Positions 1,795 to 53,067 of a DNA stretch of 64,000 nt are shown piece after piece (the stretch's first letter is position 1; each line of letters begins with the position of its first letter). Source of the stretch: Candidatus Kapaibacteriota bacterium. Lineage in GTDB: Bacteria > Bacteroidota > Ignavibacteria > Kapaibacteriales > UBA961. The DNA is taken from assembly GCA_049426725.1 (NCBI GenBank), contig JBMSYN010000012.1, positions 2,139-66,138 of the forward strand, in the 5' to 3' direction. The notes under the pieces were generated by a model. It saw only the letters and a program-made list of their open reading frames with translations, did not search any database and was not told where the DNA came from. The position numbers were made by a program, and so were the translations under genes.

Positions 1795-1978
1795 TAGGCA
1801 ATCTCCTATTGTATTGGTTGATACTACTGCTTTGATCATCTCGATATTCCAACCGCATTTGCGGCCACGAGGACTATCAATCACAAAGCATGATTATTGG
1901 ATGATGTGACATCCTGAAGAATGCAAAGACCTCAGCCACATAAAGAGGTGAGGTCCGATGCATACATTTTCTGTTCGA
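1795..1978 (-). promoter_or_regulatory. Structured rpsB leader (candidate cis-regulatory RNA)
   Basis: 184-nt spacer holding several hairpins, e.g. GACCTCA/TGAGGTC at 1928-1955 inside ATGCA/TGCAT, GGATG/CATCC, AATCA/TGATT and CCGCA/TGCGG. Confidence 0.45.
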
Positions 1979-2365
1979 TTAACGCTTCGAGAATTGGAAA
2001 CGCTTACGAGCTTTCTTCTGTCCATATTTTTTACGCTCAACCATTCTTGGATCTCTTGTGAGAAAACCTGCTGAGTGTAATTGTGTGCGAAGCTCGCCAT
2101 CGAAATCTACAAGAGCACGGGCAACGCCAAGGCGAATCGCACCGGCTTGACCACTCTTTCCTCCGCCTGTCGCTTTGATGAAGATATCAAACTTGCCTTC
2201 AAGATTTGATGTCTCCAATGGACGCATTGCCTCGCGACGATAAAATTCAACGGGAAAATAGTCTTCGATTGGACTTTTGTTAACAGTAACCTTACCGGAG
2301 CCAGGCAATAATCTTACCTGGGCAACTGCTGTCTTACGACGACCGGTAGCTGTAATATTCTTCAT
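1979..2365 (-). CDS. rpsI: 30S ribosomal protein S9
   Basis: GRRKTAVA, GGGKSGQAGA and RDPRMVERKKYG...RFQFSKR. Confidence 0.98.
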   Translation of the reverse strand: MKNITATGRRKTAVAQVRLLPGSGKVTVNKSPIEDYFPVEFYRREAMRPLETSNLEGKFDIFIKATGGGKSGQAGAIRLGVARALVDFDGELRTQLHSAGFLTRDPRMVERKKYGQKKARKRFQFSKR

Positions 2366-2376
2366 GGATTACTCCG

Positions 2377-2835
2377 TTATTCTGCGCTGTATGTAAGTTT
2401 CAATTCTGTGGGCTCTTGTGCTGCATGCGGATGATCAGGTCCGGCATAGACTTTCAACTTCTTGCCCATTTTGCGACCAAGAGAATTCTTCGGAAGCATC
2501 CCTTTCACAGCAAGCTCGATAATTTCTTCCGGCTTGTTCTTGACAAGATCTTTGAAAGTGCGGAAACGATCTCCACCGGGATAGCCGGTATAATGGAAAT
2601 ACTCTTTCTGCTCTTCACGCTTACCTTTAATGCGAATCTTGGATGCATTCACAACTATCACGAAATCACCACAATCAACATGCGGGGTGAAATCGGGCTT
2701 GTGCTTGCCTCTGATCAAATATGCAACTTGAGATGCCAAACGACCAAGTGTCATGCCATCGGCATTAACAACATGCCATTTCGCCTGAACATCTTGTTCG
2801 CGTACTGATTTCGTGATTTTGGCGGATGATACCAC
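2377..2835 (-). CDS. rplM: 50S ribosomal protein L13
   Basis: LGRLAS, GKHKPDFTPHVDCGD and GMLPKN; GTG at 2835 is best spaced from the GAGGA SD (ORF track starts at 2841). Confidence 0.97.
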   Translation of the reverse strand: MVSSAKITKSVREQDVQAKWHVVNADGMTLGRLASQVAYLIRGKHKPDFTPHVDCGDFVIVVNASKIRIKGKREEQKEYFHYTGYPGGDRFRTFKDLVKNKPEEIIELAVKGMLPKNSLGRKMGKKLKVYAGPDHPHAAQEPTELKLTYSAE

Positions 2836-10754: not shown

Positions 10755-10755
10755 A

Positions 10756-33196: not shown

Positions 33197-33811
33197 ATGC
33201 AGATTTTGATCTTTTTTAGCCTGTTCTTGATTTATGGTTCATTGTCAGCTCGTGAAATAACAATAAAACCATTTATCAGTAATCAACCTTTGGTTTTGCA
33301 CAAAGCAATGCTAGATTCAGATCATACCGTGCAGATTTCCACTTTCAAAGTATATGTGTGCTCGATAACTGATATTGATACAAAAGTTCACTTATTGGAA
33401 TTGGAACAGAACTTCTCTTTCACAATTAGTGATGTTAAGCAAACACTGATGTTTGGAATTGACTCCAATCAAACTGTGAACACAACCTTCAGTGATGCAC
33501 TTGACCCCATTCATGGAATGTTCTGGACATGGAATGCTGGTTATATCAATTGTAAAATTGAAGGTATTTATACTCATGCAAACAATGTAATAACCGAGTT
33601 TCAGTTGCATCTTGGTGGATATCGGTTTCCTGATGCGACATCCCATGTGATAAATATACCCAAAGGTAAAAAAGACATTCAGATTGAAATAGACATAAAA
33701 CCTGCCTTGGATCAGATGATGAAAGAAGGCAAGCAGAGAATTATGATACCAGGCAAAGATGCCAAGGTATTATCAGATTTATTGTACTCATCGATAAGAA
33801 TATCAAATTGA
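33197..33811 (+). CDS. MbnP-family copper-binding protein
   Basis: LDPIHGMFWTWNAGYINCKIEG containing WxW (W110/W112), downstream HLGG, and an adjacent di-heme peroxidase gene. Confidence 0.75.
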   Translation: MQILIFFSLFLIYGSLSAREITIKPFISNQPLVLHKAMLDSDHTVQISTFKVYVCSITDIDTKVHLLELEQNFSFTISDVKQTLMFGIDSNQTVNTTFSDALDPIHGMFWTWNAGYINCKIEGIYTHANNVITEFQLHLGGYRFPDATSHVINIPKGKKDIQIEIDIKPALDQMMKEGKQRIMIPGKDAKVLSDLLYSSIRISN

Positions 33812-34812
33812 AATCTTTGATGCTCATATCATTTGGTATTATGCTTTTAATGGGTTTCAATAATGAAATCCCCAGTCATATTCCCAAACCCAAGAGAGCA
33901 TTACCGGATTCAAAGAAAGACTCTTCACGTATTGCATTGGGAAGAGCTTTATTTTATGATCCAATTCTCTCAAGAGATACAACCATTTCTTGTGCATCTT
34001 GTCATTCTCAGTATAATGGTTTTACACATTCAGATCATGCTTTGAGTCATGGCATTGAAGATAGAATCGGAAAGCGAAATGCTCCATCACTGGTCAATCT
34101 TGCTTGGAGCGATGCATTCATGTGGGATGGTGCAAGTTTTTCTTTGGAAGCACAAGTATTGACACCATTAACTGCACATCATGAAATGGACAATTCTTTG
34201 GATACAATCATCTATCGTTTAAAGATGCATGATAGATATCCATCAATGTTCTATGACGCATATAAAGATAGTACAATCACTATTGCACATATTGTCAAAT
34301 CAATTGCAAGTTTTGAATCGCAATTCATTTCTTTTCAATCACGATATGATTCTGTTCAAAAAGAGTTAACTGTGTTTACTGATCAAGAAAATACAGGATA
34401 TGCTTTGTTCAAGCAACATTGCAATAGTTGTCATCAAGAGCCACTGTTCACAAACAATGCATTTGCCGATAATGGTTTATCAATGAATAAAGCATTGCCC
34501 GATAGTGGAAGATATGCCATAACCAATGCCATGCAAGATATGCGTCATTTCAAGGTACCAACGCTTCGGAATATTGTATACACATTCCCGTATATGCATG
34601 ATGGCAGATTTTCGAGACTACGCGATGTACTCAATCATTATGCATACAATATTGACACAACTGATCTAAATCGAGACATAATAAAGCCAATGTATTTGAC
34701 TTCCAATCAGATAACTGATGTGATGGCATTTCTGTATACTCTGACCGATAAGTCTTTCCTTTTTAATCCACGTTTTGGTGACCCAATGTATTTGCAGCGA
34801 GTAAAACAATGA
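33808..34812 (+). CDS. MbnH/MauG-like di-heme cytochrome c peroxidase
   Basis: LGRALFYD, CASCH, RNAPSL, WDG, CNSCH, FKVPTLRNI and PYMHDG; TTG start overlaps the upstream stop. Confidence 0.9.
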   Translation: MKSLMLISFGIMLLMGFNNEIPSHIPKPKRALPDSKKDSSRIALGRALFYDPILSRDTTISCASCHSQYNGFTHSDHALSHGIEDRIGKRNAPSLVNLAWSDAFMWDGASFSLEAQVLTPLTAHHEMDNSLDTIIYRLKMHDRYPSMFYDAYKDSTITIAHIVKSIASFESQFISFQSRYDSVQKELTVFTDQENTGYALFKQHCNSCHQEPLFTNNAFADNGLSMNKALPDSGRYAITNAMQDMRHFKVPTLRNIVYTFPYMHDGRFSRLRDVLNHYAYNIDTTDLNRDIIKPMYLTSNQITDVMAFLYTLTDKSFLFNPRFGDPMYLQRVKQ

Positions 34813-37232
34813 TTAGACTTTTATGCTTTCTTCTAAGTGCTACAACAGCATTTTCTCAAACAAATCCCATCATTACTTCTTGGCTGCAGAACACTACCAT
34901 TGTGGGTAGTTATTATCAGAAGAATAATTCAACTGCAATAAGTAATAATATCATTGTCAATGTTCAAAAAGTTCAATATTCAACTACCAGTGTATATATA
35001 AATACCAATGGAATTCCAGCATATCCTACAGGACCTTTCCTTGATGGAAATCCGTCCCAGGCACAAAGTCAAAATACCATTTTTAAATTTCCTTTAAATC
35101 CACAACAGAACACGGGAAATCCGACTGCAACAACAGGTGGAAATATTGGAATATTCATCAATGGTGTTGCATTGTTTGATTATCGAGATGGTGTTTCGTG
35201 GAAGACATCGCAAAATAGATTACTGGGAGGTCCACTTGGAGGTCAAGGAGACAATGTATGGAATCGAGATGCTATCGTTGCAGAAAGAATAGGTTTTGAT
35301 TGTGCAAAAGGTCATCCGGCAATGGGAAATTACCATCATCATCAGAATCCCTCGGCTTTTAAATTGGATAAAACGGTTATCTCAACCATTTGTTCATTAT
35401 ATGATTCCGACGGTTTATATACAATCAATGCCAATGTTCATTCTCCATTGATTGGCTTTGCCTATGATGGATTCCCAATCTATGGCGCTTATGGTTATAA
35501 GAACAAGGATGGATCAGGTGGAATAGTACGAATGAAATCTTCATATCAATTACGAAACATATCTGTTCGAACTCATTATGCGGATGGGACTGATGTACTT
35601 GATGGTCCGGCAGTCAATTCTTCATATCCTCTTGGATATTTTCGCGAAGATTATGTGTATGTTTCTCACTCAGAGTCAGATTATTTGGACGATCACAATG
35701 GAAGATTTTGTGTTACACCCGAATATCCAAATGGCATCTATGCATATTTTAGTACTGTTGATGATAATTGGAATTCAGCATATCCTTATGTGGTTGGTCC
35801 GACATTTTACGGAATTAAAACAGCTACCAAAGTACCAAGCATATCTGAGCCAACAACCGTCTACACAATTCCGAACCCAACATTGGATATTTCTCCACCT
35901 TCAATAACAATTGCACCTGCAGCATTATCTGTCAATATTCAAGTCACTTCAAACACAGCCTGGAATGTTTCTAGTAATCAAGCATGGGCTATTCCATCCA
36001 TTTTGAATGGAACAGGAAATACAGTTGTAGGCATACAGTGTGCAGAAAACAAAGGCATTGGAAGCAGAAATGCAACTATAACATTTTCTGCAAATGGACT
36101 ACCCGCTAAAACAGCATTTATTACTCAAAGAGATAGTATTATCACTCTTTCTTTGAATAAACAAAGCGTATTGTTTCCCGCTTATGCATCAACAGATAGC
36201 GCAGTATCTATTTCTTCCAATGCAAATTGGACAATAACCACATCTGATCCTTGGATCCATTGTAGTCCTATGGAAGGATCCGGAAATGCAAGTATCATCA
36301 TCAATGCTGATGTGCATACAGATACAGTAAAGAGATATGGATCAGTCTCTGTACAAGCCGGAAACTCAATTATTAAAACAATTGCGATAACTCAACTTGA
36401 TTCAGTTCATGTTCCATCAGTCATGGCTGCTGATATTGATACAATTTTTCTGAATGCTGGAAAGAATAGTTCTTATTCGTTCAAATTGGTTTCAAATACC
36501 CCATGGAAAGTAATATCTCCAGCTACATGGCTTAATATTCAACCTGATTCTGGAAATACTACACAGATGATAATGGTTACTGCAAAGGAGAATATTTCAT
36601 CACCTAGAAAGTCGGTTATTCTCATCAAAGGGATCAATGTAAAAGATATAATGATACCCGTAATTCAAAAAGATAGCATAAAATTGTCACTTACTCTGTC
36701 GGCAGACACTTTATATGTACCTGCAAAAGAAAAAGACCATTTCATCATTCTCACTTCAAATACGCCTTGGAAGTGTCTTACTTATGATTCTTGGATTCAT
36801 ATTAAAAATGATACTGGAAATTCGAGTTCACTACTATCATTTACTACTACTCTGAATGATTCTAAATCAAAGAGATTAGGTACTATCCATGTTCAAGGAT
36901 TATCTGTTCCTCAACAATCTTTAACTATCATTCAGTCTGATACTGTTCTTACACCAAGCAATATATCAGAATCAGCTATTGATGATGTTGTAAGTCTCTT
37001 TCCAAACCCTGCCAATGATCTACTTGTGATACAAGCAAAGTCGCTGATAAGGGAATCCCTGACATTGAAACTTTTTGACATGATGGGAAGAGAAATAGAC
37101 ACAACGATGCTGTATCAAGGCAGCACCATTGCATTCTTTGATGTGTCCACCTTGTATGATGGAACATATCAACTCTCGATTATAGGAAGAGAGTATAATC
37201 TTCAACAAACAATTATTATTCAACATCAATGA
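34809..37232 (+). CDS. YHYH-domain protein with four BACON-like repeats and T9SS CTD
   Basis: GIFINGV, GHP..GNYHHH, HSPLIGFAYDGFPIYG and LDDHNGRF..TPEYP.G.YAYF; four SNx.W...W repeats; FPNP CTD. Confidence 0.8.
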   Translation: MIRLLCFLLSATTAFSQTNPIITSWLQNTTIVGSYYQKNNSTAISNNIIVNVQKVQYSTTSVYINTNGIPAYPTGPFLDGNPSQAQSQNTIFKFPLNPQQNTGNPTATTGGNIGIFINGVALFDYRDGVSWKTSQNRLLGGPLGGQGDNVWNRDAIVAERIGFDCAKGHPAMGNYHHHQNPSAFKLDKTVISTICSLYDSDGLYTINANVHSPLIGFAYDGFPIYGAYGYKNKDGSGGIVRMKSSYQLRNISVRTHYADGTDVLDGPAVNSSYPLGYFREDYVYVSHSESDYLDDHNGRFCVTPEYPNGIYAYFSTVDDNWNSAYPYVVGPTFYGIKTATKVPSISEPTTVYTIPNPTLDISPPSITIAPAALSVNIQVTSNTAWNVSSNQAWAIPSILNGTGNTVVGIQCAENKGIGSRNATITFSANGLPAKTAFITQRDSIITLSLNKQSVLFPAYASTDSAVSISSNANWTITTSDPWIHCSPMEGSGNASIIINADVHTDTVKRYGSVSVQAGNSIIKTIAITQLDSVHVPSVMAADIDTIFLNAGKNSSYSFKLVSNTPWKVISPATWLNIQPDSGNTTQMIMVTAKENISSPRKSVILIKGINVKDIMIPVIQKDSIKLSLTLSADTLYVPAKEKDHFIILTSNTPWKCLTYDSWIHIKNDTGNSSSLLSFTTTLNDSKSKRLGTIHVQGLSVPQQSLTIIQSDTVLTPSNISESAIDDVVSLFPNPANDLLVIQAKSLIRESLTLKLFDMMGREIDTTMLYQGSTIAFFDVSTLYDGTYQLSIIGREYNLQQTIIIQHQ
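34855..34894 (+). repeat. 40-bp exact direct repeat, copy 1 (copy 2 at 37284-37323)
   Basis: CTCAAACAAATCCCATCATTACTTCTTGGCTGCAGAACAC at the mature N-terminus of both YHYH paralogs. Confidence 0.85.
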
Positions 37233-38572
37233 ACAAAACAATGAAATTTGCATTGCTTTTGATGAGCATTGTTACAATACATGCTCAAACAAATCCCATC
37301 ATTACTTCTTGGCTGCAGAACACAAGCAAGCTTGGAAGTTATTACATGAAGAATAATTCAACGCCAATAAGTAATAATATCAAAGCGAATGTACAATTGG
37401 TGAGATATTCTTCGAACAATGTATATGTTTCCACAAATGGTATTCCCACCTATCCAACCGGCCCTTTTCAGGATGGTAATCCATCACAGGCACAAAGTCA
37501 AAACGGGATATTTCGATTCCCCTTAACTGCATCAAAAAACACAGGAAATCCTGTCAAGACCACCATGGGGAATATTGGATTATTCATCAATGGTGTTGCA
37601 TTATTTGATTCTCGTGATGGGGTATCATGGAATAATGCCCAACAAAGAGTTGTGGGTGGACCAATCATGGGGAAAGGTGATGGAATATGGAATCGCGATG
37701 CAATCGTAGCTGAAAGAGTTGGATTTGATTGTTCCAAGGGTCATCCTGCAATGGGGAATTATCATCATCATCAAAATCCATCAGCATTCAAATTAGATAA
37801 GAAAGTGATCTATGATGTATGTTCACTCTATGATGCTGAAGGACTTTATGCAATCAATCCTGCAATGCATTCACCACTCATTGGTTTTGCTTATGATGGC
37901 TTTCCTGTATATGGTGCTTATGCATTCAAAAATACTGATGGCACAGGTGACATTGTTCGCATGAAATCGGGTTATCAATTGAGATCAATCACAAATCGCA
38001 CTCATTTGGCTAATGGAACGGATGTAACTGATGGTCCTTCTGTCAATGGTACATTTCCTTTGGGGTATTTCATTGAAGATTATGAATTTATTTCTCATCC
38101 CGGAGAAAATGATTATTTGGATGAACATAATGGTCGTTTTTGCATCACTCCTGAGTATCCAAATGGCACCTATGCTTATTTCTGTACAGTTGATGAACAA
38201 TGGAATTCAACATTCCCTTATGCAGTTGGCCCAACCTTTTATGGTTCGATTGTTGCAGCCAAGGTAAATTCCGTTTCCGAACCGGTAGAAACATATACAT
38301 CCATAAGCTCAATTCAAGAAATACAGTCATCAGGTTTTTCCATGTTTTTTGGCGGTAATGATTTACTCATCATACAATCTCAAGACATCATCCGTAATCC
38401 TCTAGACATAAAGCTATATGATTTACAAGGAAGAATGATAGCCGGTACGGTTCTCGAACAAGGAAGTACGATTGCTCATATTGACTGTTCATTATTCCAT
38501 GATGGAGTATATGCTTTACATATCTCATCCGGAGTGAAAACCATAGAACAACAAGTTATTATCAAGCATTGA
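37229..38572 (+). CDS. YHYH-domain protein paralog with degenerate T9SS CTD
   Basis: Same motifs as the upstream paralog, no BACON repeats; LYDLQGR...GVY CTD; ATGA overlap. Confidence 0.8.
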   Translation: MNKTMKFALLLMSIVTIHAQTNPIITSWLQNTSKLGSYYMKNNSTPISNNIKANVQLVRYSSNNVYVSTNGIPTYPTGPFQDGNPSQAQSQNGIFRFPLTASKNTGNPVKTTMGNIGLFINGVALFDSRDGVSWNNAQQRVVGGPIMGKGDGIWNRDAIVAERVGFDCSKGHPAMGNYHHHQNPSAFKLDKKVIYDVCSLYDAEGLYAINPAMHSPLIGFAYDGFPVYGAYAFKNTDGTGDIVRMKSGYQLRSITNRTHLANGTDVTDGPSVNGTFPLGYFIEDYEFISHPGENDYLDEHNGRFCITPEYPNGTYAYFCTVDEQWNSTFPYAVGPTFYGSIVAAKVNSVSEPVETYTSISSIQEIQSSGFSMFFGGNDLLIIQSQDIIRNPLDIKLYDLQGRMIAGTVLEQGSTIAHIDCSLFHDGVYALHISSGVKTIEQQVIIKH

Positions 38573-39641: not shown

Positions 39642-41240
39642 ATGAACATTTCAAAAATTATCATCCTTTTCCTTTGTAGCATTACATTTTCTTTTGCTCA
39701 GAAAAATGTTGTTTTAATCATTGCTGATGATCTTGGACTAGAGTATTGTGGCTTTTATGGAAATACCGGTGATACGGTCATAATGCCAAATGTACAGTCA
39801 CTTCTTTCAAAAGGTATTCGGTTTACAAATGCTTGGTCCAATCCATTGTGCTCTCCTACAAGGGCGGGTATACTTACTGGACGATATAGTTTTAGGACAG
39901 GTGTTGGTGATGCAGTTGGAGGTCAAACCTCTAATACGCTTGACACATCTGAATTGACCATTCCAAGAATGCTGAACATTTATAATCCGAATGGTATAGC
40001 CAAAGCCAATATTGGAAAATGGCATCTTCATACTCCTATGCCGCAAAGCAATTTTTCAATTCCAATGATTATGGGATATGATTATTATGAGGGAAGTTTT
40101 AGTGGCTCTTTGCCAAACTATTATGCTTGGAATAAAATTAAGGATAGTAAAATCACAGTTTGTAGCACATATGCAACCATTGAAACCACAAATAATGCAA
40201 TAGATTGGTGTAAGTCTATCCCCTCCAATAAACCTATTTTTTTATGGCTAGCATATAATGCGCCGCATACACCATTTAATCTACCACCGTCGAATTTACA
40301 TTCCTATTCGAACCTAAAGGGGAATGCTCAGGATACAGCAACAAGTGTTGTTCCTTATTACAAAGCTATGTGCGAAGCATTGGACAGAGAGATTGGAAGA
40401 TTGTTTGACTCTTTGAAAGCAGCCAATCGTTTTGATAGCACCGATTTCATTTTTATTGGTGACAATGGGAGTGACCCCCGTGTCTACAAAGGAAATGGAA
40501 GAGCCAAAGGAAGTGTATATCAAGATGGAATTTGTGTGCCATTCATTGTTTCTGGTCCTTCAGTAAAAAATCCAGGAAGAGTTTCATCCGCCCTAGTCAA
40601 CACACAAGATATTTTTGCCACCATTCTTGAACTATTTGGTTTTGTTGATTGGAAGAATCACTCTTTGCAAACTAAACCAATTGATTCCAAGAGTTTTCTC
40701 CCAATCATAAAAGCTGAAAATCAAATGACACGAGATTGGGTGTTTAGTGAAGTGTTTAGATCTACCCCAAATGCTTCTGACGGAAAAACGATGAGAAATC
40801 AAGAGTACAAATTGCTTGATTTTGACAATGGGACACAGAAGTTCTATAATCTTTCCTCAGATCCAGATGAACAGCAAAATCTATTATTACAATCTCTTAC
40901 TGAAACAGAAAAAAACAATTATGAATATCTCTGCCGAGAGATGACAAATCTTGTAGGTAAAAATGGTTTCTGTTCTATAACTAGCATTGAAGAATATTTA
41001 AGTAATAATTCAGGAGTCATCTTCGATTCCGAACATGACTTGCTTCAAATACGAAAACATTGCAGTGATAATGCTCGTTTTGCATGCATATCATCAAATG
41101 GAAAAATTATGATTCAGCAGAATTTTGAAGATGAGTCTGACTTTCAGATCAATACTTCATCGCTTCACTCTGGAATATATACCGTCACTGTGGATTGTAA
41201 TCACACTTCCATCAATCATCCCATTATCATTCAACGGTGA
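39642..41240 (+). CDS. Cys-type formylglycine sulfatase with T9SS-like CTD
   Basis: IADDLG, CSPTRAGILTG, GKWHL, APH, GDNG and KG motifs. Confidence 0.9.
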   Translation: MNISKIIILFLCSITFSFAQKNVVLIIADDLGLEYCGFYGNTGDTVIMPNVQSLLSKGIRFTNAWSNPLCSPTRAGILTGRYSFRTGVGDAVGGQTSNTLDTSELTIPRMLNIYNPNGIAKANIGKWHLHTPMPQSNFSIPMIMGYDYYEGSFSGSLPNYYAWNKIKDSKITVCSTYATIETTNNAIDWCKSIPSNKPIFLWLAYNAPHTPFNLPPSNLHSYSNLKGNAQDTATSVVPYYKAMCEALDREIGRLFDSLKAANRFDSTDFIFIGDNGSDPRVYKGNGRAKGSVYQDGICVPFIVSGPSVKNPGRVSSALVNTQDIFATILELFGFVDWKNHSLQTKPIDSKSFLPIIKAENQMTRDWVFSEVFRSTPNASDGKTMRNQEYKLLDFDNGTQKFYNLSSDPDEQQNLLLQSLTETEKNNYEYLCREMTNLVGKNGFCSITSIEEYLSNNSGVIFDSEHDLLQIRKHCSDNARFACISSNGKIMIQQNFEDESDFQINTSSLHSGIYTVTVDCNHTSINHPIIIQR

Positions 41241-42513
41241 TTCGAGATCGACTTTTTGTTATCATATAACCAAATGCCATTACGATCACAAACAATATAC
41301 TTCCATAAATTCCCGCATTGGTATCAAACATGAAGATGTTTATTCCCGTGAACAAACATGCTGCAATGAATAACAGAGCAACCAGATGAATCTTGATAGA
41401 TAGTTTCTCTCCTTTTAGTTTATATAATGTTGCCATTCCAACACCTAGTCCGATACTATCAATGAAGATTGTATAATTCAAAATCCTCTCGAATGATTCA
41501 CCAGCATAGACACTAATCAAACTGATCGCCGTAAATACAGTCAAGGCAGAAAAACTCACTCCTTTTGCTTCATCCGATTGTGCAAATATTTTTGGCAGTA
41601 CACCATCTTTTCCCATTGCTGAAATCACTCTGGGATTTGATAGCATTGATATATTCACATATCCAAATACTGAAATCATGATAATCATGCTGACAATCAA
41701 TGCGGCTGTGCTTCCAAACAATCGTTCCATCATGATGGCGGCAATAAATTTTGATTGCGCCAATTCATGAAATCCAATCACTTGCACATAAGCCAGATTT
41801 GCCAATAAATAAATGCCAATGATAATCAATACGCCTAGTATGATTGCTCTTGGCAGCATCTTCTCATTATTGTTCACCTCACCACCAAAATTGATCGTTT
41901 GTTGATATCCACCATAGGTGAATGAAACAGCAATAAGTGCAAGACCAAATGATTCCCAAATGCCTCCTGAATGTGACTGAATGGCAGTCACTGTTTCTGT
42001 CGGAGGTAGGATACCAAGTGCTGAAATAATTGCCCCAAGCATGAACAATTTGATACCCATGAGTATGTTCTGAACAGTGGCACTTGTTCGCAGGCCAAGC
42101 AGATTAAGTCCATATAAAACAAAAATGAATAACGACGCTATGACTGTACTTGGCAAACCCATTGCATAAGGCATCACATATTCGGCACCGATAATCGCAA
42201 CCCCTGCGATTGAAGCAGCATTGGAAACAAGTATGATAATATTGATTGCAAATGCTAGCGTTGGTGAATATGCCCTTGCAAAGATGGAATAATATGCTCC
42301 GCTCACGGGCATCCGCTTGCCAATTTCAGCATATCCGATTGCGCCACAAAGAGCAATCAATCCGCCGGTGATCCATGCGACATAGTAGATCAATTCACTT
42401 CCTGCTCTTTGGGCAACAGTAGCAGGGGCTCGAAAAATGCCCATGCCAATCACGAGTGAAATGACCATCATGGTGATGTCGAAGAAACGAAGTTGATGTT
42501 TTGCTCTATTCAT
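41227..42513 (-). CDS. APC-family amino acid permease
   Basis: IGMGIF, YAEIG..MP..G, FTYGGY and about 12 TMs. Confidence 0.9.
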   Translation of the reverse strand: MNRAKHQLRFFDITMMVISLVIGMGIFRAPATVAQRAGSELIYYVAWITGGLIALCGAIGYAEIGKRMPVSGAYYSIFARAYSPTLAFAINIIILVSNAASIAGVAIIGAEYVMPYAMGLPSTVIASLFIFVLYGLNLLGLRTSATVQNILMGIKLFMLGAIISALGILPPTETVTAIQSHSGGIWESFGLALIAVSFTYGGYQQTINFGGEVNNNEKMLPRAIILGVLIIIGIYLLANLAYVQVIGFHELAQSKFIAAIMMERLFGSTAALIVSMIIMISVFGYVNISMLSNPRVISAMGKDGVLPKIFAQSDEAKGVSFSALTVFTAISLISVYAGESFERILNYTIFIDSIGLGVGMATLYKLKGEKLSIKIHLVALLFIAACLFTGINIFMFDTNAGIYGSILFVIVMAFGYMITKSRSRITVE

Positions 42514-42590
42514 TTAGGTAAATCCTCGATTTCAGTTCGTAAAAATAGACAAATCGAACTTTTCCTATCACATTTCTATGTAAATTCAGT

Positions 42591-44600
42591 ATGCAAGATT
42601 CCGATTACATAGTAGATTATGTCTTTATTGGTTTGGGAGCGGCAAATTCCCTCATCATCCGCCAAATGCACGCTCATGGCATATTGGATGATGCAACATT
42701 GATGATCATCGATCCCGATGAAAAATTATTGAATGATAAAACCTTCTGCTTTTGGGCAACAGAACAAGAGATTCATGATCTTGGATTCACTTCGCTTATA
42801 AGCCATGATTGGTCTTTATTGGGAATTGGAGAACATATAACTCAATCTGTTCAACCCTATCGCTATTATCATGTTTCTAGTATCACGCTCTATGATGAAC
42901 TGCGAGATATTCTTTCACTACATAATGTACAATTCGTTCGTGAATATGCCGAAGAGATTATTTCTTCAGAAAGTGAAATCATATCCGTCCGGACTTCTCA
43001 TTCAAAAGTGAGTGCTAAGTATGTATTCGATTCCAGACCACCTCAATGGAATGAACCTGCTCGCAATGAAACATTTCTCCTGCAATCTTTTTTTGGTTGG
43101 AGAATTACGACTAAAGATCCAATCTTCGATGTACATACATTTACCATGATGGATTTTTCCGTTGATCAATCCATTGCTACGCAATTTGTGTATGTACTTC
43201 CATTCTCTCCAAATCATGCACTCATAGAATTGACACGCTTTGGAGCGAGTCCCATAGAATATACTTATGCTCAAGAACAATTGAATAGATATTGTCAACA
43301 AAAGCAATATGGTTCGTATACAATTGAGAGTGAAGAACAAGGCATCATTCCGATGTCCACATGTTCAATCAAAACTGAACCTTCAACAGATAACCACTTA
43401 AAGACAGGCAGTGCCGCAGGAAGAATTAAACCAAGCACAGGGTATGCATTCAAGGAAATGGCGTTTCATGCAGTTCACATTGTGGAGTCACTCAAAAGTG
43501 GATACAATCCACAAAGAGCTATGCAACGATCAGGGCGATTTGCTTTCTATGATAGACTTCTTCTGAAGATATTAGAGTCTCATCCAAATCGAGGAAAAGA
43601 ACTATTTGAGCGATTGTTTCAACAAGTTTCGGGCACAAGAGTACTTCGTTTTCTTGAAGAGCAAACTTCATTCATAGAAGATATATCGGTGTTCATGGCA
43701 CTACCCAAATACATGTTTGCCAAGCAAGCTGTGATTGATATGATGCATACCTTTTTCAGGAATGCTCATGGTATGTTTGCTTTGGGTATGGCACTGTTGT
43801 TTGTGCTGTTTCAATATCTTGATATGTCTATTATCAATTGGCTTATTCTTGGAATTGGACTTTTGCTGATAGGCATTCCCCATGGAGCTATGGATCATGT
43901 ATTGACCATTGGTGAAAGATCGGCAAAATCAGTTGGTTTGTTCATACTTGGATATGTGGCAAAAGGAATACTCATGTTGTCGATATGGATTATATCACCA
44001 CTTCTCGGACTCATCATTTTTTTGATTTATTCCATGTGGCATTTTGGTCAGACAGAGTATGAGCAAGAGAATGTCCATAATCCATGGCTTATTTTCCTAA
44101 GAGGTTTTGCGGTATTGTCATTCATACTTGCCACTCATATTCCCGAGACAAATACTATCATCAATGCATTGTCGATATCTTCAATTATTGACATGCAAGG
44201 AGTTATCACTTCATCATTCCTAACTGAACTCTCATTCACTCTATTGATATTGAGCACCATTGTAAAGCTAAGAAAGTCAATCATTCTTTGCACACTTTCA
44301 TTATTGGTCATGATGCAGTTGGATCTACTGCAGGTATTCGGTGTCTATTTTGTTTTTCATCACAGTTTTTTAGGATGGAATCATTTGAAGAAAGGACTCC
44401 GGAAGACAAACCTACAATTATGGGAATTATCGGCTCCATTTTCGATTTCAGCAATTGGAACTCTTTTTCTCTTTTTCATCAACACCGGTTACACACTTAT
44501 AGATTTTGCCCCCTTATTTTTTGTGTTTCTCTCATGTATTAGCTTCCCCCATGTGCTAGAGATGCACTCATTCTATGGTTCGATATTCAAGCGCAGGTGA
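42591..44600 (+). CDS. Fusion of lycopene beta-cyclase (CrtY-type) and Brp/Blh beta-carotene 15,15'-dioxygenase
   Basis: N-part: IGLGAA Rossmann, DKTFCFW, VFDSRP, FVYVLPFS and GSAAGRIKPSTGYAF; C-part: multi-TM with GIPHGAMDH, HFG, HHS and FPH; single uninterrupted ORF. Confidence 0.85.
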   Translation: MQDSDYIVDYVFIGLGAANSLIIRQMHAHGILDDATLMIIDPDEKLLNDKTFCFWATEQEIHDLGFTSLISHDWSLLGIGEHITQSVQPYRYYHVSSITLYDELRDILSLHNVQFVREYAEEIISSESEIISVRTSHSKVSAKYVFDSRPPQWNEPARNETFLLQSFFGWRITTKDPIFDVHTFTMMDFSVDQSIATQFVYVLPFSPNHALIELTRFGASPIEYTYAQEQLNRYCQQKQYGSYTIESEEQGIIPMSTCSIKTEPSTDNHLKTGSAAGRIKPSTGYAFKEMAFHAVHIVESLKSGYNPQRAMQRSGRFAFYDRLLLKILESHPNRGKELFERLFQQVSGTRVLRFLEEQTSFIEDISVFMALPKYMFAKQAVIDMMHTFFRNAHGMFALGMALLFVLFQYLDMSIINWLILGIGLLLIGIPHGAMDHVLTIGERSAKSVGLFILGYVAKGILMLSIWIISPLLGLIIFLIYSMWHFGQTEYEQENVHNPWLIFLRGFAVLSFILATHIPETNTIINALSISSIIDMQGVITSSFLTELSFTLLILSTIVKLRKSIILCTLSLLVMMQLDLLQVFGVYFVFHHSFLGWNHLKKGLRKTNLQLWELSAPFSISAIGTLFLFFINTGYTLIDFAPLFFVFLSCISFPHVLEMHSFYGSIFKRR

Positions 44601-44659
44601 GCACCAAGTCCATTATGTAGGATTCTTGAACATGTTATATATTGATGTATCAGTACTAT

Positions 44660-46081
44660 TTACCTCCCCATCACAAACTCATATCTTCCCAATGGAATGA
44701 ATGTGTACCCTTCAGTAACTGAAATCGTTTTGACAAATGCACCGCGAATGTCAAATACATCATAGTGCATTGGTAGTTGTTCTTGGGGAATGCTAAGCCA
44801 TATTCCTTCAGGTGTCCGTGTTATCTCAATGCCTTTTCGCTTGAGAATTTCATGAATACCTGAGATGCTTTGCGCTTCAAATGCTCCGATGGAAGGTGGA
44901 TTAGCATATGTTTTTCCTTCATGGTCTTTTAATGTATCACCAGTAATAAACCCATTTCCTTTTGCAGGACTGTCTGATTGTAGTCGATAATCCCCACCTG
45001 CATAATCACGCAGCATTGGATCGACTCCATAGATTCCATTGAATTCCATGAGTTGTGCTTCTTGCATTTTTGAAGCAGCTGGATTGTCTACATTATACCA
45101 GAGATTATTTCTCAGGAGAAATGATTGAGGTGCAGTATTTCCACCGATATTCACATGTCGCGAAATTGTTGAACGGAATACCACCAGATTATTTTGAAAG
45201 ATATTGTTTCCACATGGTTCAAATCTATTTGGATCGACTGTTTCTTGCAGTATGCGAAAGATCCAGCGTTCAGGGTTGATGATGGTATTATTAGTGACTG
45301 ATACTCTCACTGATCCAACATAAGCCATGGGTGTGACGGACCCAACAAATACATTACCCGTAACCATCAAGTCCGCTGCTTCATACTTTGCATCAAGTGG
45401 TCTAAAGAATTCAAGTCCAGTGGAACCACCAAGGTTTAATGCACGCTGGCCACCATTGATGAATGAATTACTTTCAATGCGAATAAAACTTGTCCCACCC
45501 TTTGCTTGAATACAATTAGAACCTGAATTTCGAAATATATTATTTCTGAATATTCCTTTATGGCATCCCACCATATCCGCTCCACTTCCACCGGGAGAAC
45601 CATTTTCAAAAAGACAATCTTCAATGATGAAATCATCCAATCCTGATAATTTTAATTGATCATTGTTTCCCGTGGCTCCCATTCCGGAAAATGTCAGATT
45701 TTTGAATGTCATGTGATGTGTTGGTGTATCATAAGTACCTGCATCATCACAATTCATTCCATTGCTTGTTTGACCATTAATAGTAAAATTCTCAATGATC
45801 ATATAAGAGCAATCAGAAAAATGAAATGATTCTGTTCCGCCTTTGAATATTACAGAATCTCTATCGATACCGCGAATGATGATCGGTGCTTGTGAAATAC
45901 CTTGAATATTCTCAATGAAAAATGCACCTTGATATTGTCCATTATGTATGAGTACTGTATCTCCGGGCTTAGCAGCCATACAAGCCAAACGTGGATTGAC
46001 ATATTGCTTTCCTACGCCAACATGGAGAGTGTTTGATACGGCAATTACATGAAGAGACAAAGCCAAAAGAACATATAGCAT
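44660..46081 (-). CDS. Right-handed parallel beta-helix secreted protein (pectate lyase-like fold)
   Basis: PGDTVLI, repeated N.F stacks and DYRL..DSPA...IGAFE; short CTD-like tail. Confidence 0.7.
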   Translation of the reverse strand: MLYVLLALSLHVIAVSNTLHVGVGKQYVNPRLACMAAKPGDTVLIHNGQYQGAFFIENIQGISQAPIIIRGIDRDSVIFKGGTESFHFSDCSYMIIENFTINGQTSNGMNCDDAGTYDTPTHHMTFKNLTFSGMGATGNNDQLKLSGLDDFIIEDCLFENGSPGGSGADMVGCHKGIFRNNIFRNSGSNCIQAKGGTSFIRIESNSFINGGQRALNLGGSTGLEFFRPLDAKYEAADLMVTGNVFVGSVTPMAYVGSVRVSVTNNTIINPERWIFRILQETVDPNRFEPCGNNIFQNNLVVFRSTISRHVNIGGNTAPQSFLLRNNLWYNVDNPAASKMQEAQLMEFNGIYGVDPMLRDYAGGDYRLQSDSPAKGNGFITGDTLKDHEGKTYANPPSIGAFEAQSISGIHEILKRKGIEITRTPEGIWLSIPQEQLPMHYDVFDIRGAFVKTISVTEGYTFIPLGRYEFVMGR

Positions 46082-46222
46082 TGTTAAGTGCCTTAAAATT
46101 ACTGAAGTAACTATATAGGTGGCAATTTACACATTCATCATAATCAAATATGAAGATCATTGATAAATCTTGTCAAAGACTTTGTATAATTGCCAAAATA
46201 ATTGACCATTAACGAGAAGAAT

Positions 46223-47947
46223 ATGTCAGAAGAATCAATCATACAGATAATACAACAGATTGAATTGTTGTTTAAAGATAAAAATATGATTGGTGTTCAA
46301 TCATTGGGAAAGAACTATACACACAATACAAATTTGCTCAAAGATCTAGACTCTTATTCAATCTATTTAGATTATATGGGAAAAGCGTCCTATCTTCTTT
46401 CCGATTATGTCGATTCATCTTATTTTTTTGAGGAAGGTATCAGAGTCAATACCATTACCAAAAATAAAGAAAAACTATCCGCAGCACTTGGCAACTTGGG
46501 ACTAACGAAATATCGAATGGCAGAATATTCTTCCGCTCTTGAATACTTGGCAAAAGCAATTCAAATCAATGAAGAGATTGGTAATAAGCAGTTTCTTGCA
46601 TCAAACCTGAATAATATTGGTAATGTATTTTCCAGTCTTAATGAATATGATAAAGCACTTGAGTATCATGAAAGGGCAATTGACATTAATAAAGAGATAC
46701 AGAATATTGCTGGTATAGGAGCAAATCTTGGAAATATTGGGCTTATCCTCAAACAACTTTCTAAACATGAAGAAGCTTTGCTCAATTTTCAGCAAGCTCT
46801 GGATATTCATCAAAGTATTAATGATAAAGAAGGTATATCGATTAGCTATCAAAATATTGGAAATGTATTCAATGAACTAGAAGATTATGACAAAGCACTA
46901 GAGTATTTTCATATGGCACTGAATGTATGCGAGGATATTCACAATAAGAATGGACTTGCTAATGCACATAGTTCAATTGGACTTACTTATTATAAACTTC
47001 ATCAATATGATAATGCCATACAGTCTATCAACCGAGGTTTAAATATTGCAAGAGAAATACAACACAGAGAATCATGTTTGACATCACTCGACATATTATC
47101 AAGTATTTATGAATCATTGGATGATTACAAAACTGCATTAGACTATTATAAAGAACATATTAACATCAAAGACAGTATTCAGTCGGATAACACAATGAAA
47201 AAAGCTCTTCTCTTCGATCAGCAGAGAAAGATTGATGCAGAAAACAAAGAGCGGCTATTACAAATTGCAAGAATGGAAGAACAGGAAAAGTTACTGTACA
47301 ATATACTACCAAACAATATTGCAGAGCGTATACTCAAGCATGAGTCTTCCATTGCGGATTATTATCCTTCAGTTTCTGTACTCTTCATGGATATAGTAGG
47401 GTTCACAGAGCTTTCTTCATATCTTAGTCCAAAACAATTAGTTTTTCTCCTTGACTTGATTTTCACCAAAGCAGATGAAATTCTCGATGTCTTTGGAATA
47501 GAGAAAATTAAAACGATTGGAGATGGATATTTAGCAGTGGCTAATTTGACAAAGCAAATCGACAATCATGAGTTTGTCGCTGCTTCTGCAGCGATACAAT
47601 TGCTTGATTCTTTAAGTAAGATGAAATACGAAATTCCTGCTGATAAGGATGATTTAAACCAAAATATGCTAAGCATACAGTTGAGAATAGGATTACACTC
47701 AGGTGAAGTTGTTGCTGGAATTGTGGGCAAAAATAAATTCATATTTGATCTTTGGGGTGATGTCGTCAATATTGCATCGAGGATGGAATCTGGCTCAGAG
47801 CCAGGAAAGATTCAAATCAGCGAAGTCATGGCCAAGCAAATTGAAGGTAATCCATCAATTCGTTTAGTACCGCGAGGTAGTATCGAGATAAAAGGGAAAG
47901 GTATGATGCAAACGTATTGGTTGGAGAGTAACATCATCACTTCTTGA
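46223..47947 (+). CDS. TPR-repeat class III adenylate/guanylate cyclase
   Basis: Multiple NIG.V...A..Y TPRs; LF.DIVGFT, KIKTIGD, RIGLHSG and DLWGD.VN.ASRMES; K/D specificity residues suggest ATP. Confidence 0.88.
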   Translation: MSEESIIQIIQQIELLFKDKNMIGVQSLGKNYTHNTNLLKDLDSYSIYLDYMGKASYLLSDYVDSSYFFEEGIRVNTITKNKEKLSAALGNLGLTKYRMAEYSSALEYLAKAIQINEEIGNKQFLASNLNNIGNVFSSLNEYDKALEYHERAIDINKEIQNIAGIGANLGNIGLILKQLSKHEEALLNFQQALDIHQSINDKEGISISYQNIGNVFNELEDYDKALEYFHMALNVCEDIHNKNGLANAHSSIGLTYYKLHQYDNAIQSINRGLNIAREIQHRESCLTSLDILSSIYESLDDYKTALDYYKEHINIKDSIQSDNTMKKALLFDQQRKIDAENKERLLQIARMEEQEKLLYNILPNNIAERILKHESSIADYYPSVSVLFMDIVGFTELSSYLSPKQLVFLLDLIFTKADEILDVFGIEKIKTIGDGYLAVANLTKQIDNHEFVAASAAIQLLDSLSKMKYEIPADKDDLNQNMLSIQLRIGLHSGEVVAGIVGKNKFIFDLWGDVVNIASRMESGSEPGKIQISEVMAKQIEGNPSIRLVPRGSIEIKGKGMMQTYWLESNIITS

Positions 47948-49354: not shown

Positions 49355-50083
49355 ATGGGACATGAATTAGCTACGATTGCTCCCGGTAATTATGTGGCCT
49401 TCACATTTTTTATCGGAACGATGGCAATGATGGCTGCTTCGGTATTTTTCTTCTTTGAATTAAATACCACGCCCTCACGTTGGAGAACGTCCGTTCTCGT
49501 TTCTGGTATCATCACATTTATTGCTGCGGTGCATTACTATTACATGCGCGGGTACAATTTGGAAACCGGTGCTTCACCGACTTTCTTCCGCTATGTTGAT
49601 TGGTTATTGACAGTGCCATTGATGTGTGTTGAGTTTTATCTCATCACAAAAAAGGCAGGTGCAACGATTGGACTTCTTTGGAAGTTGATCATCGCTTCAA
49701 TTTTCATGTTGGTGACAGGTTATATCGGCGAAGCAATGCATGGTCAAGATGCATCAAGCTGGGTATGGGGCACAATTTCATCCATCGGTTATGCATATAT
49801 CGTATGGTTGGTTTGGGCTGGTGATGTAGCCAAATTGGCGAAATCATCATCACCTGCAGTTGCTGCAGCCAATCGTTATCTCGGTTGGTTCGTGCTTGTA
49901 GGTTGGGCGATTTATCCATTAGGATATATTCTTGGAACAACAGGTGGATTGTTCGGAGCTCAGATGGTTGCAGATCCAAAAGCAGCACAATATTCCATGG
50001 ATATCGTGTATAATATCGGTGATGCAGTCAATAAAATCGGCTTTGGCTTGGTGATTTATATGCTGAGCAGAAAAGAAGATTAA
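49355..50083 (+). CDS. Proteorhodopsin-type light-driven proton pump (DTE motif, green-tuned)
   Basis: Seven TMs; H60; RYVDWLLTVPLMCVE (D82/T86/M90/E93); WAIYP; DAVNK227 retinal lysine. Confidence 0.95.
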   Translation: MGHELATIAPGNYVAFTFFIGTMAMMAASVFFFFELNTTPSRWRTSVLVSGIITFIAAVHYYYMRGYNLETGASPTFFRYVDWLLTVPLMCVEFYLITKKAGATIGLLWKLIIASIFMLVTGYIGEAMHGQDASSWVWGTISSIGYAYIVWLVWAGDVAKLAKSSSPAVAAANRYLGWFVLVGWAIYPLGYILGTTGGLFGAQMVADPKAAQYSMDIVYNIGDAVNKIGFGLVIYMLSRKED

Positions 50084-50205: not shown

Positions 50206-51309
50206 ATGAAGATTGGCATATTGAAAGAACCTGATTTCGAAACAAGAGTTTCTCTTCTTCCGGAAGCTGTTTCAATCTTGATCCGAAATGGTCATGAAGT
50301 ATTTGTTGAATCAAATGCAGGCATTGATGCTTTTGCTTCAAATGATGAGTATACAAAAGCGGGAGCAAACATTACCGATGCACATTTGATAAAGCAAGAA
50401 TGTTATATAATTCTATCAATGCACCCCAATTCAGTCATGGATGTTCAATCCTCAATACTGATTGGTGTCTATTCTCCACTCTCAGAAACTTCCACACTCA
50501 ATATTTTTGCTTCCAATCGCAACACTGTATTTTCCATGGACATGCTACCAAGAACCACTCGTGCGCAAAGCATGGACATCCTAAGTTCTCAAGCCAATAT
50601 CGCAGGATATAAAGCAGTATTGCTTGCAGCTACAACGTACTCGCGCTATTTCCCAATGTTCATGACAGCTGCGGGAAGCATTGCACCGGCAAAAATGCTC
50701 ATACTTGGGGCAGGTGTCGCCGGACTCCAAGCCATTGCAACAGCAAGACGCTTGGGTGCGGTGGTTGAAGTATTTGATACAAGACCTGCAGTGAAAGAAG
50801 AAGTGATGAGTTTAGGAGCAAAATTCATCGAAGTGGAAGGTGCAGCTGATGCAAGTTCTGCTGGAGGATATGCAGTTGAACAAAGTGAAAACTTCAAATT
50901 GAGACAGCAAGCTCGCATTGCAGAGAGTGCCGCCAAAGCAGACATCATCATAACAACCGCTCAAATCCCCGGAAGAAAAGCTCCTATATTGATTACTCAA
51001 GAAATGTTGAATTCAATGCGCAAAGGGAGCATCATCATTGATTTGGCAGCATCGACAGGTGGAAATACACCTCTGACGAAAGACAATGAAACGGTTTCAT
51101 ATAATGGAATAACAATCATTGGAAATAGCAATCTCGCTCGCATGATGCCTGCTGATGCAAGTAAACTCTATGGAAAAAACATCATCAACTTTTTACAATT
51201 GATCACCGGAAATGATGCCACGCTTCATCTCAATCTTGAAGATGATCTCGTGAAGGGCACATGCATCATGAAAGAAGGATCAATCATTCATGAACGATTG
51301 AGTAAATAA
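50206..51309 (+). CDS. pntAA: NAD(P) transhydrogenase alpha subunit part 1 (dI)
   Basis: ETRVS, RAQSMDILSSQ, GAGVAGL, GGYA and IPGRKAP. Confidence 0.93.
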   Translation: MKIGILKEPDFETRVSLLPEAVSILIRNGHEVFVESNAGIDAFASNDEYTKAGANITDAHLIKQECYIILSMHPNSVMDVQSSILIGVYSPLSETSTLNIFASNRNTVFSMDMLPRTTRAQSMDILSSQANIAGYKAVLLAATTYSRYFPMFMTAAGSIAPAKMLILGAGVAGLQAIATARRLGAVVEVFDTRPAVKEEVMSLGAKFIEVEGAADASSAGGYAVEQSENFKLRQQARIAESAAKADIIITTAQIPGRKAPILITQEMLNSMRKGSIIIDLAASTGGNTPLTKDNETVSYNGITIIGNSNLARMMPADASKLYGKNIINFLQLITGNDATLHLNLEDDLVKGTCIMKEGSIIHERLSK

Positions 51310-51313
51310 GATT

Positions 51314-51622
51314 ATGGAACAAATCATGCAATGGTTTGCCGAACATCAAGACATGATATACATCGTGATACTCATGATTTTTGTTGGCATCGAAGTTATT
51401 GGACGGGTGCCAAGCGTTTTGCATACACCACTCATGAGTGGTGCCAATGCCATACACGGGGTGGTGATCATCGGCGCCATCATTGTGATGGGAAATGCAA
51501 GTCCCGATGACATGGTAGCACTCATATTGGGTTTTCTTGCAGTGATATTGGGAACGCTCAATGTTGTGGGTGGATTTGTTGTCACCGATAGAATGCTTGA
51601 AATGTTCAACAAGAAAAAGTAA
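51314..51622 (+). CDS. pntAB: NAD(P) transhydrogenase alpha subunit part 2
   Basis: LHTPLMSGANAI and NVVGGFVVTDRML. Confidence 0.93.
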   Translation: MEQIMQWFAEHQDMIYIVILMIFVGIEVIGRVPSVLHTPLMSGANAIHGVVIIGAIIVMGNASPDDMVALILGFLAVILGTLNVVGGFVVTDRMLEMFNKKK

Positions 51623-51627
51623 AAGAC

Positions 51628-53067
51628 ATGGATTCAATACTTCTTTTCATTTATTTGATTGCTTCAATCACATTCATTCTTGGATTGAAGATGCTCTCAA
51701 ATCCAAAATCAGCACGCAAAGGTAATACAGTAGCTTCTTTGGGAATGGGATTGGCAATCATCGGTACCATAGCGCTTTACAAAAATGAATTGGGCGATCA
51801 TCTTGGCAATCATGTTTGGATTATATGCGGTCTGGCAATAGGTGGAATCATTGGAACTATGTCTGCGAAGAAAGTGCAAATGACAGCCATGCCACAAATG
51901 GTGAGTTTATTCAATGGCATGGGTGGTGCATGCGCAGCACTGATTTCAATCATTGAATTCAAACATTTGGTGCATGATTTCAAACCTGAATTATATGCAG
52001 GAGGCGGATACACATATTTTTCAATGCTAGATGGTGCTTCCCTACTGGTCATCATGGCAGGATTGATCATTGGTTCGGTTTCTTTTACGGGTTCCATGAT
52101 TGCATGGGCAAAATTGGATGGCAGATTGAATGACTATGCTTTCAATGGACAACATATCGTGAATATCTGTCTTCTACTTGTCACCATTGGTCTTACATCC
52201 ATGATATTGTTTCTTCGTCCTGAAGAGACAATTGAATTTTTCTATGCAGTATTGGTTTTATCAGCTCTCTATGGCATCCTTTTCGTGCTACCGATTGGTG
52301 GCGCAGACATGCCTGTTGTTATTTCATTACTAAATTCATTCACAGGTATTGCTGCAGCATGTGGGGGATTTCTCTATGATAATTCAGCAATGCTCACCGG
52401 AGGAATTTTGGTTGGAGCAGCGGGAACATTACTCACGGTGCTCATGTGCAATGCAATGAATAGATCATTGTTGAATGTATTGATCGGTTCATTTGGTGCC
52501 GGTGCTCAAGGAAGTCAAAGCGCGGGAGTTCAAGGAACTTACAAAGAAATGTCAATCTCCGATGCCGCCGTTTTGATGTCATATTCATCAAAAGTTGTGA
52601 TTGTACCCGGATATGGTCTCGCGGTTGCACAAGCCCAACATGCATGTCATGAACTCGAAAAATTACTTGCAGAAAAAGGCGTTGATGTCATCTATGCTAT
52701 ACATCCGGTTGCCGGCAGAATGCCCGGTCACATGAATGTCCTACTCGCCGAAGCAGATGTTCCCTATGAAAAACTCAAAGAAATGGAAGAAATCAATGAT
52801 GACTTTCCATCTGTGGATGCAGTCTTGGTTTTGGGTGCCAATGATGTGGTAAATCCTGCCGCCAAGACAGATCCAAATTCTCCGATTTACGGAATGCCCA
52901 TACTCGATGTTGAATTGGCAAAACATGTCATAGTCAATAAGCGAAGCATGAAACCCGGATATGCAGGGATAGAGAATGAACTCTTTTTCCGACCCAAAAC
53001 CTCCATGCTCTTTGGCGATTCAAAAAAAGTTCTACAGGATTTAATAGCTGAAATCAAAAACTTGTAA
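51628..53067 (+). CDS. pntB: NAD(P) transhydrogenase beta subunit
   Basis: MTAMPQMV, GGADMPVVIS.LNS, PGYGLAVAQAQ, HPVAGRMPGHMNV and GANDVVNPAA. Confidence 0.95.
   Translation: MDSILLFIYLIASITFILGLKMLSNPKSARKGNTVASLGMGLAIIGTIALYKNELGDHLGNHVWIICGLAIGGIIGTMSAKKVQMTAMPQMVSLFNGMGGACAALISIIEFKHLVHDFKPELYAGGGYTYFSMLDGASLLVIMAGLIIGSVSFTGSMIAWAKLDGRLNDYAFNGQHIVNICLLLVTIGLTSMILFLRPEETIEFFYAVLVLSALYGILFVLPIGGADMPVVISLLNSFTGIAAACGGFLYDNSAMLTGGILVGAAGTLLTVLMCNAMNRSLLNVLIGSFGAGAQGSQSAGVQGTYKEMSISDAAVLMSYSSKVVIVPGYGLAVAQAQHACHELEKLLAEKGVDVIYAIHPVAGRMPGHMNVLLAEADVPYEKLKEMEEINDDFPSVDAVLVLGANDVVNPAAKTDPNSPIYGMPILDVELAKHVIVNKRSMKPGYAGIENELFFRPKTSMLFGDSKKVLQDLIAEIKNL

Follow-up and report, generated by a model that had tools for sequence, protein, structure and literature searches.

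The 64,000-nucleotide window analysed here, the whole stretch of DNA taken from contig JBMSYN010000012.1 of a Candidatus Kapaibacteriota bacterium, contains a single gene (crtY::blh) in which a lycopene cyclase of the flavoprotein CrtY type is joined in frame to a Brp/Blh beta-carotene dioxygenase. Its product is probably a bifunctional, membrane-anchored enzyme that converts lycopene to retinal for the cell's proteorhodopsin, with a single origin from an adjacent crtY-blh gene pair. The N-terminal domain, a cytoplasmic CrtY dependent on flavin adenine dinucleotide (FAD), would convert lycopene to beta-carotene, and the C-terminal Blh domain, a membrane enzyme of several helices that depends on iron, would cut beta-carotene at the 15,15' bond to give two retinals that load the proteorhodopsin. 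The cyclase would thus be tethered to the membrane beside the cleavage site, with the two activities fixed at a 1:1 ratio. The gene and its parts are as follows.

42591..44600 (+): crtY::blh fusion gene; ATG start, 669 amino acids plus stop, from the list of open reading frames and matching both Pfam families
42615..43712 (+): CrtY-type FAD-dependent lycopene cyclase domain (PF05834), residues 9-374
43713..43826 (+): junction, residues 375-412, with the last cyclase helix followed by a hydrophobic helix, TM0
43827..44597 (+): Brp/Blh beta-carotene 15,15'-dioxygenase domain, residues 413-669, with nine predicted membrane helices

Both halves are recognised as complete domains. The Pfam family Lycopene_cycl (PF05834) matches residues 9-374 (E 1e-49, 170.1 bits against a cut-off of 23.4) and spans model positions 1-373 of 380, so that the match is near full length. 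The family BCD (PF15461) matches residues 423-656 (E 7.6e-30, 104.9 bits against a cut-off of 28), and the NCBIfam model blh_monoox (TIGR03753) matches residues 419-656 with 121.4 bits against a cut-off of 95.25. A preliminary description of this DNA had proposed just such a 669-residue frame, with a complete flavin-type cyclase in frame with a complete Brp/Blh enzyme carrying four histidine motifs, and the two Pfam matches and the histidines described below bear it out. Profile searches of the genome, which is 2.24 Mb in size and 99% complete, give the fusion as the only PF05834 match and the only above-cut-off PF15461 match.

Residues of the catalytic type are retained in both halves, as judged from two alignments. 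The close family, consisting of the query and 108 full-length homologues (109 rows, identity down to 36%), has 62 invariant columns, located in both halves, and is free of gaps near the junction. The second alignment is more divergent and contains the query and 93 full-length representatives of 50%-identity clusters (94 rows). In the cyclase half Q165, E213, T215 and G273 are kept in all 94 rows, and the glycines of the G14-x-G16 dinucleotide (FAD)-binding motif are kept in 90 (G14) and 91 (G16). E213 and T215 lie in the segment ...LIE213LT215R..., which may be equivalent to the 'FLEET'-like cyclase motif with its conserved acidic residue. In the Blh half H431, D435, H484 and H591 are kept in 94/94 rows, H654 in 93/94 and H516 in 92/94. 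Two further histidines are kept more loosely (H436 in 67/94 and H598 in 63/94). The segment aligned to residues 370-425, which covers the junction, varies from 52 to 82 residues and is mostly 54-59 residues long.

An AlphaFold2 model computed from the 109-sequence alignment has a mean predicted local distance difference test score (pLDDT) of 87.2. The N-terminal half has a mixed alpha/beta flavoprotein-like fold, and among solved structures it most resembles flavoproteins of the geranylgeranyl reductase and p-hydroxybenzoate hydroxylase kinds (Foldseek, E 4e-12). From residue 373 the modelled chain is helical, with one helix at 373-390, a hydrophobic helix at 392-409 and then nine more helices; there are ten hydrophobic helices between residues 392 and 668. 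TM0 is the 18-residue hydrophobic helix at 392-409 (mean hydropathy 1.85) and precedes the histidine-bearing first helix of the Blh domain. Averaged over the family, the predicted inside segments carry positive net charge (+2.2 before TM0, +1.7 in loop 5/6 and +1.7 in the C-terminal tail) and the predicted outside loops are neutral or negative (-2.2 in loop 4/5). A flavoenzyme cyclase needs to lie on the cytoplasmic side. From the model and these charges we infer ten membrane helices, with the two termini inside the cell and the cyclase on the cytoplasmic face of the membrane. The membrane anchoring of the cyclase suggested in the preliminary description follows from this architecture, in which ten predicted helices come after the cyclase and the charges of the loops put the N-terminal half on the cytoplasmic side.

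Separate Bacteroidota Blh proteins have an N-terminal helix equivalent to TM0, and TM0 is therefore part of Blh, not a newly acquired linker. The alternative that TM0 was invented as an adaptor at the time of fusion is rejected on the same grounds. Because the first Blh helix was already there, with its N-terminus presumably facing the cytoplasm, no new adaptor would have been needed, and read-through from crtY into blh would have been sufficient.

The fused family is very widespread in metagenome-assembled Bacteroidota, yet rare in evenly drawn samples. A word-index protein search scored 7999 candidates, of which 875 matched at E <= 1e-3; among the 120 matches listed, 119 contain both Pfam families and 108 have a length of 640 residues or more, with identities down to 37%. 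With the Blh half alone as the query, the same type of search returned 23 proteins only, mostly fragments of fused genes. When the 50%-identity cluster representatives were searched exhaustively, 4043 proteins matched at E <= 0.001, of which 895 reached E <= 1e-30; among the best 150 representatives, 109 contain both halves (93 of them at least 630 residues long) and 41 are separate cyclases. In a species-level genome collection a relative is encoded by 128 of 159 candidate stretches, and 78 loci were kept. All 78 are from metagenome-assembled or single-cell genomes labelled Bacteroidota, with labels including Flavobacteriales (Crocinitomicaceae, Cryomorphaceae and Schleiferiaceae among them), Chitinophagaceae and Cytophagales; no cultured strain was seen among these 78 loci. 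The closest relatives (67-69% identity) are labelled 'Ignavibacteria', 'Bacteroidota' or 'Candidatus Kapaibacterium'. Many organism labels of metagenome-assembled genomes (e.g. 'Chitinophaga pinensis', 'Akkermansia sp.') look unreliable, and they are not used here to argue for transfer between taxa.

The two enzymes catalyse consecutive steps and are normally encoded by separate genes, as had been supposed at the outset. An evenly drawn sample of the phylum contains the single uninterrupted frame in 3/401 genomes (G000, G195 and G264, this genome included) compared with 124/401 with a match of any kind, and in a sample of the order the fusion is present in 6/101 genomes, and these are all members of the window's genus. 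Within this genus (g1) there are two versions, one with 67-69% identity to the query (G069, G054 and G042) and another with 39% (G048 and G029), and this divergence points to gene replacement by transfer. The preliminary description had left the extent of the fusion as a question, and the answer is that it is very widespread in metagenome-assembled Bacteroidota, with its proteins recorded as either of the two enzymes: public databases hold hundreds of such sequences of ~630-700 residues named after one half only ('Brp/Blh family' at NCBI, 'lycopene beta-cyclase' at JGI). Surveys of the pathway based on the names crtY and blh could consequently score one of the two genes as missing in many planktonic Bacteroidota. 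One record on file (P0121), a 359-residue protein identical to the C-terminal part of the fusion, probably reflects gene prediction on a truncated contig.

That a sequencing or assembly error merged two adjacent genes at the junction is a possibility so slight that it can be set aside, although relatives do have crtY and blh as separate neighbours, in some cases with frames that overlap. The stretch is found in sequencing runs from 15 studies, and contigs were compared from three DNA runs of three other studies (X3, X6 and X7) and one RNA-library run (X15). Single contigs span the junction in each DNA run (X3, 42446-44087; X6, 42825-44150; X7, 42825-43841), including the segment 43700-43800 that had been singled out for checking, and they contain no inserted or deleted letters across it. 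Applying every listed substitution produces no internal stop, with 2 to 6 amino-acid changes per run. No meaning is attached to the stretches of the gene left uncovered in X7 and X15. Both halves lie in one stop-to-stop frame in 72/72 of the related loci that are not cut by a contig end, and in the remaining six of the 78 (L010, L016, L029, L043, L045 and L063) the contig ends before the match does. The bridging contigs without frameshift or stop, these shared frames and the 93 long two-domain cluster representatives together refute a merging artefact.

A sigma-70-like site (43717..43744, plus strand; 10/12 matches with a TG) is located inside the reading frame just 5' of the Blh half. The promoter and terminator scan of 42300-44900 gave chance-level counts, with 9 found and 9.4 expected.

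The likely antecedent of the fusion is a pair of adjacent genes. In genus g5 of the same order, separate crtY and blh genes are adjacent in this order in 10/11 genomes, with some tens of bases shared between their stop-to-stop frames; other adjacent separate pairs occur across the phylum (G393, G324, G466, G448 and G293). In G300 (locus L112; G300:C45:5000-8100) crtY (1420-2673, minus strand) and blh (484-1416, minus strand) are in phase with a single TGA between them, and this pair may be a single mutation short of fusing, may have arisen by a recent fission, or may contain a site of read-through. The fusion would thus have been born once from such a pair by loss of the crtY stop codon, and would later have been distributed through planktonic Bacteroidota, in many cases together with proteorhodopsin as a unit of two genes.

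Trees of the two domains are consistent with this scenario. The Blh-domain tree contains 102 rows (74 fused and 28 separate; the fused L058 and L061 were dropped because they cover less than 80% of the domain model), and all 74 fused rows together with three separate rows form one clade (SH-aLRT 99). The CrtY-domain tree contains 108 rows and was computed with the quicker LG+G4 model; the smallest clade with all 76 fused rows has 82 rows (support 96), the six 'separate' rows within it are contig-cut, and every intact separate CrtY falls outside. Both trees are quick searches with long branches flagged, and a single origin of the fusion is well supported but not proven. Two of the three separate Blh rows within the fused clade are stand-alone proteins of G062 and G077 (L134-L137; G062:C8 and G077:C61). 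With the fusion as query these genomes give a match to the Blh half and none to the cyclase half, and no cyclase remnant was found upstream of their stand-alone blh genes, so they look like cases of secondary loss of the cyclase half.

The fusion is linked to proteorhodopsin in this and in other genomes. The genes around it in the window include the following.

41227..42513 (-): amino-acid permease gene, divergent neighbour of the fusion
44660..46081 (-): beta-helix protein gene, convergent neighbour of the fusion
46202..47947: gene for a tetratricopeptide-repeat protein that has an adenylate/guanylate cyclase domain at its C-terminus, located in the interval from the fusion to the rhodopsin gene
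49355..50083 (+): proteorhodopsin gene, 242 amino acids, PF01036 with E 3e-41

The proteorhodopsin gene is 4.7 kb downstream of the fusion, with three unrelated genes between, and the genome gives no other rhodopsin match. Among solved structures its closest relatives are proteorhodopsins (E 2e-76). The alignment includes ...RYVDWLLTVPLMCVEF..., which contains D, T and E positions, as well as ...NKIGF...; we take the former to be the DTE motif of proton pumps and the lysine of the latter to be the Schiff-base lysine. Among the 78 related loci a proteorhodopsin gene lies within the examined flank in 23, always on the same strand as the fusion; in 17 it immediately precedes the fusion and in 4 it immediately follows it, making the two genes direct neighbours in 21/78. 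Of five genomes with the fusion and no proteorhodopsin gene within 8 kb, four encode a rhodopsin elsewhere. The fusion is common to many uncultured aquatic Bacteroidota carrying a light-driven proton pump.

Directly 3' of the proteorhodopsin gene and on the same strand (50206..53067) are genes for the alpha (AlaDh_PNT) and beta (PNTB) subunits of a proton-translocating NAD(P) transhydrogenase. This pairing of a light-driven proton pump with a proton-driven generator of NADPH is suggestive. Further to the left, positions 33197..38572 contain a row of genes for an MbnP-like protein, a di-haem cytochrome c peroxidase (MauG/MbnH-like) and two YHYH-domain proteins with secretion-sorting tails, which may constitute a copper-related cluster.

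None of the 78 loci has a relative of crtB, crtI or crtZ within 8 kb of the fusion, so the fusion does not belong to a complete crt operon. In this genome the lycopene pathway is represented by a phytoene synthase (CrtB, contig C2) and a phytoene desaturase (CrtI, contig C7). Elsewhere in the genome are an HpnC/HpnD-like pair, two CrtD-like desaturases and a 146-residue FA_hydroxylase protein that resembles CrtZ; the genome has no match to PF18916 (CrtYc/d). With a sole cyclase, a sole above-cut-off Blh, CrtB, CrtI and one proteorhodopsin, the supply of retinal must pass through the fusion, and any other ring-bearing carotenoid must start from the product of its cyclase, the only one found. 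At locus L086 (G000:C1:133000-152000) positions 9467..11310 hold two adjacent SQS_PSY genes with best matches to HpnD and HpnC, and a pair of this kind suggests squalene synthesis via the bacterial three-step route.

A number of observations weigh against a bifunctional lycopene-to-retinal enzyme, or against parts of that reading. The NCBIfam CrtY models match the cyclase half from end to end with scores under their strict equivalog or subfamily cut-offs (TIGR01790, 106.5 with a cut-off of 209.5; TIGR01789, 63.4 with a cut-off of 215.2); this half is consequently a divergent CrtY, whose product may be bicyclic beta-carotene or monocyclic gamma-carotene. The inter-domain geometry of the AlphaFold2 model is only moderately confident (predicted template modelling score, pTM, 0.66). 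Five pieces of the gene, one of them over the domain boundary (43729-43929), are covered by RNA-library contigs; this coverage counts in favour of the gene, but it is no proof of transcription because such libraries may contain DNA. To judge from the stand-alone proteins of G062 and G077, the Blh half can evidently exist apart from a cyclase partner in the same chain. Finally, given the CrtZ-like hydroxylase and the two CrtD-like desaturases, some of the cyclase product probably leaves the enzyme, and its departure would argue against tight channelling.

The low equivalog scores would also fit a protein with one non-catalytic half, in which the cyclase domain has a carotenoid-binding or regulatory role, or one in which gamma-carotene is the sole cyclase product and Blh releases one retinal and an acyclic aldehyde; Blh is indeed described as cleaving carotenoids besides beta-carotene in the available text of a recent preprint (bioRxiv 10.64898/2026.08.06.743266). 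We consider this improbable, since the family conserves E213, T215 and the glycines that bind the dinucleotide, and the genome retains its proteorhodopsin although no other cyclase was found in it.

A second alternative accepts both activities and attributes no kinetic benefit to their union. The fusion would have been fixed for co-expression and co-inheritance as a one-gene retinal module, with the cyclase product equilibrating freely in the membrane before it reaches Blh. This agrees with the direct same-strand neighbourhood of proteorhodopsin and fusion in 21/78 loci, with the two versions in the window's genus that indicate replacement by transfer, and with the release of product implied by a sole cyclase alongside a CrtZ-like gene. 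However, the junction is helical and its length is tightly kept, both in the 109-row alignment, where it has no gaps, and in the divergent set, which suggests a fixed geometry between the halves and not a passive tether; moreover, many marine members are not beside a proteorhodopsin gene (55/78 loci). A distinct possibility, this explanation is nonetheless one that on balance we doubt. Channelling of beta-carotene between the halves, as a possible part of the bifunctional reading, is plausible. The further proposal of the preliminary description, that fusion insulates the supply of chromophore from the cell's other carotenoids, is doubtful, because the only cyclase found in a 99%-complete genome is accompanied there by a CrtZ-like hydroxylase and CrtD-like desaturases.

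A more ambitious interpretation is tentative, and we would not expect all of it to hold. Proteorhodopsin and crtY::blh would together form a minimal two-gene phototrophy cassette of ~2.8 kb, capable of making any lycopene-producing Bacteroidota cell light-harvesting. The fusion would have arisen once, been kept as one transferable gene for the retinal branch and moved repeatedly between freshwater and marine Bacteroidota orders, and the fixed helical junction would place the exit of the cyclase above the cavity of Blh, allowing beta-carotene to pass from one to the other within the cytoplasmic leaflet.

If both halves are active, the gene provides a natural single-gene route from lycopene to retinal and, together with a rhodopsin, a two-gene module for obtaining energy from light, useful both for engineering and for explaining the spread of rhodopsin phototrophy. 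The family is also a natural test of whether fusion of a soluble flavoenzyme to a membrane dioxygenase channels a very hydrophobic intermediate.

The closest known systems are the separate CrtY (PF05834) and Blh/Brp (PF15461, TIGR03753) enzymes of proteorhodopsin gene clusters, which belong to the same families and catalyse the same consecutive reactions. The separate genes of relatives share the order crtY then blh, whereas here there is one polypeptide. No description of a bacterial CrtY-Blh fusion was found in the full-text literature searched, from which most subscription journals are absent, and this is to be read as not found and not as not published. The available text of one paper gives crtYcd and blh of Salinibacter without calling them fused (PMC5877348), and in the accessible part of another, CrtY-Blh is absent from a 2023 list of known natural fusions (PMC10284914).

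Other carotenoid-enzyme fusions are known. According to the accessible text, Thecamonas trahens encodes a four-domain CrtI-CrtB-CrtYc/d-Blh protein (PMC10016063), which is similar in being a natural fusion with a lycopene cyclase directly N-terminal to Blh. It differs in being eukaryotic, in having two further domains and in using the unrelated membrane cyclase CrtYc/d instead of the flavoprotein CrtY. Fungal CrtYB, thraustochytrid CrtIBY and verrucomicrobial CrtIB (PMC10284914, PMC2889829), the last reported as new in 2023 and found in rhodopsin operons, likewise unite consecutive carotenoid steps in one protein; as described in the available texts, none of the three links a cyclase to a cleavage enzyme.

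For the Blh half the closest comparison is with the 66A03 Blh of an uncultured marine bacterium, for which the available text reports nine membrane helices and the candidate iron ligands His21, 78, 188 and 192 and, newly, His256 (bioRxiv 10.64898/2026.08.06.743266). By order and spacing only, His21, 78, 188 and 256 would correspond to H431, H484, H591 and H654 of the fusion. Relative to the 66A03 enzyme as so described, the fused Blh, like other Bacteroidota Blh proteins, has one extra N-terminal helix, and it has in addition the cyclase in front. Natural fusions of carotenoid enzymes are already established, and what sets this one apart is a flavoprotein CrtY joined directly to Blh in bacteria.

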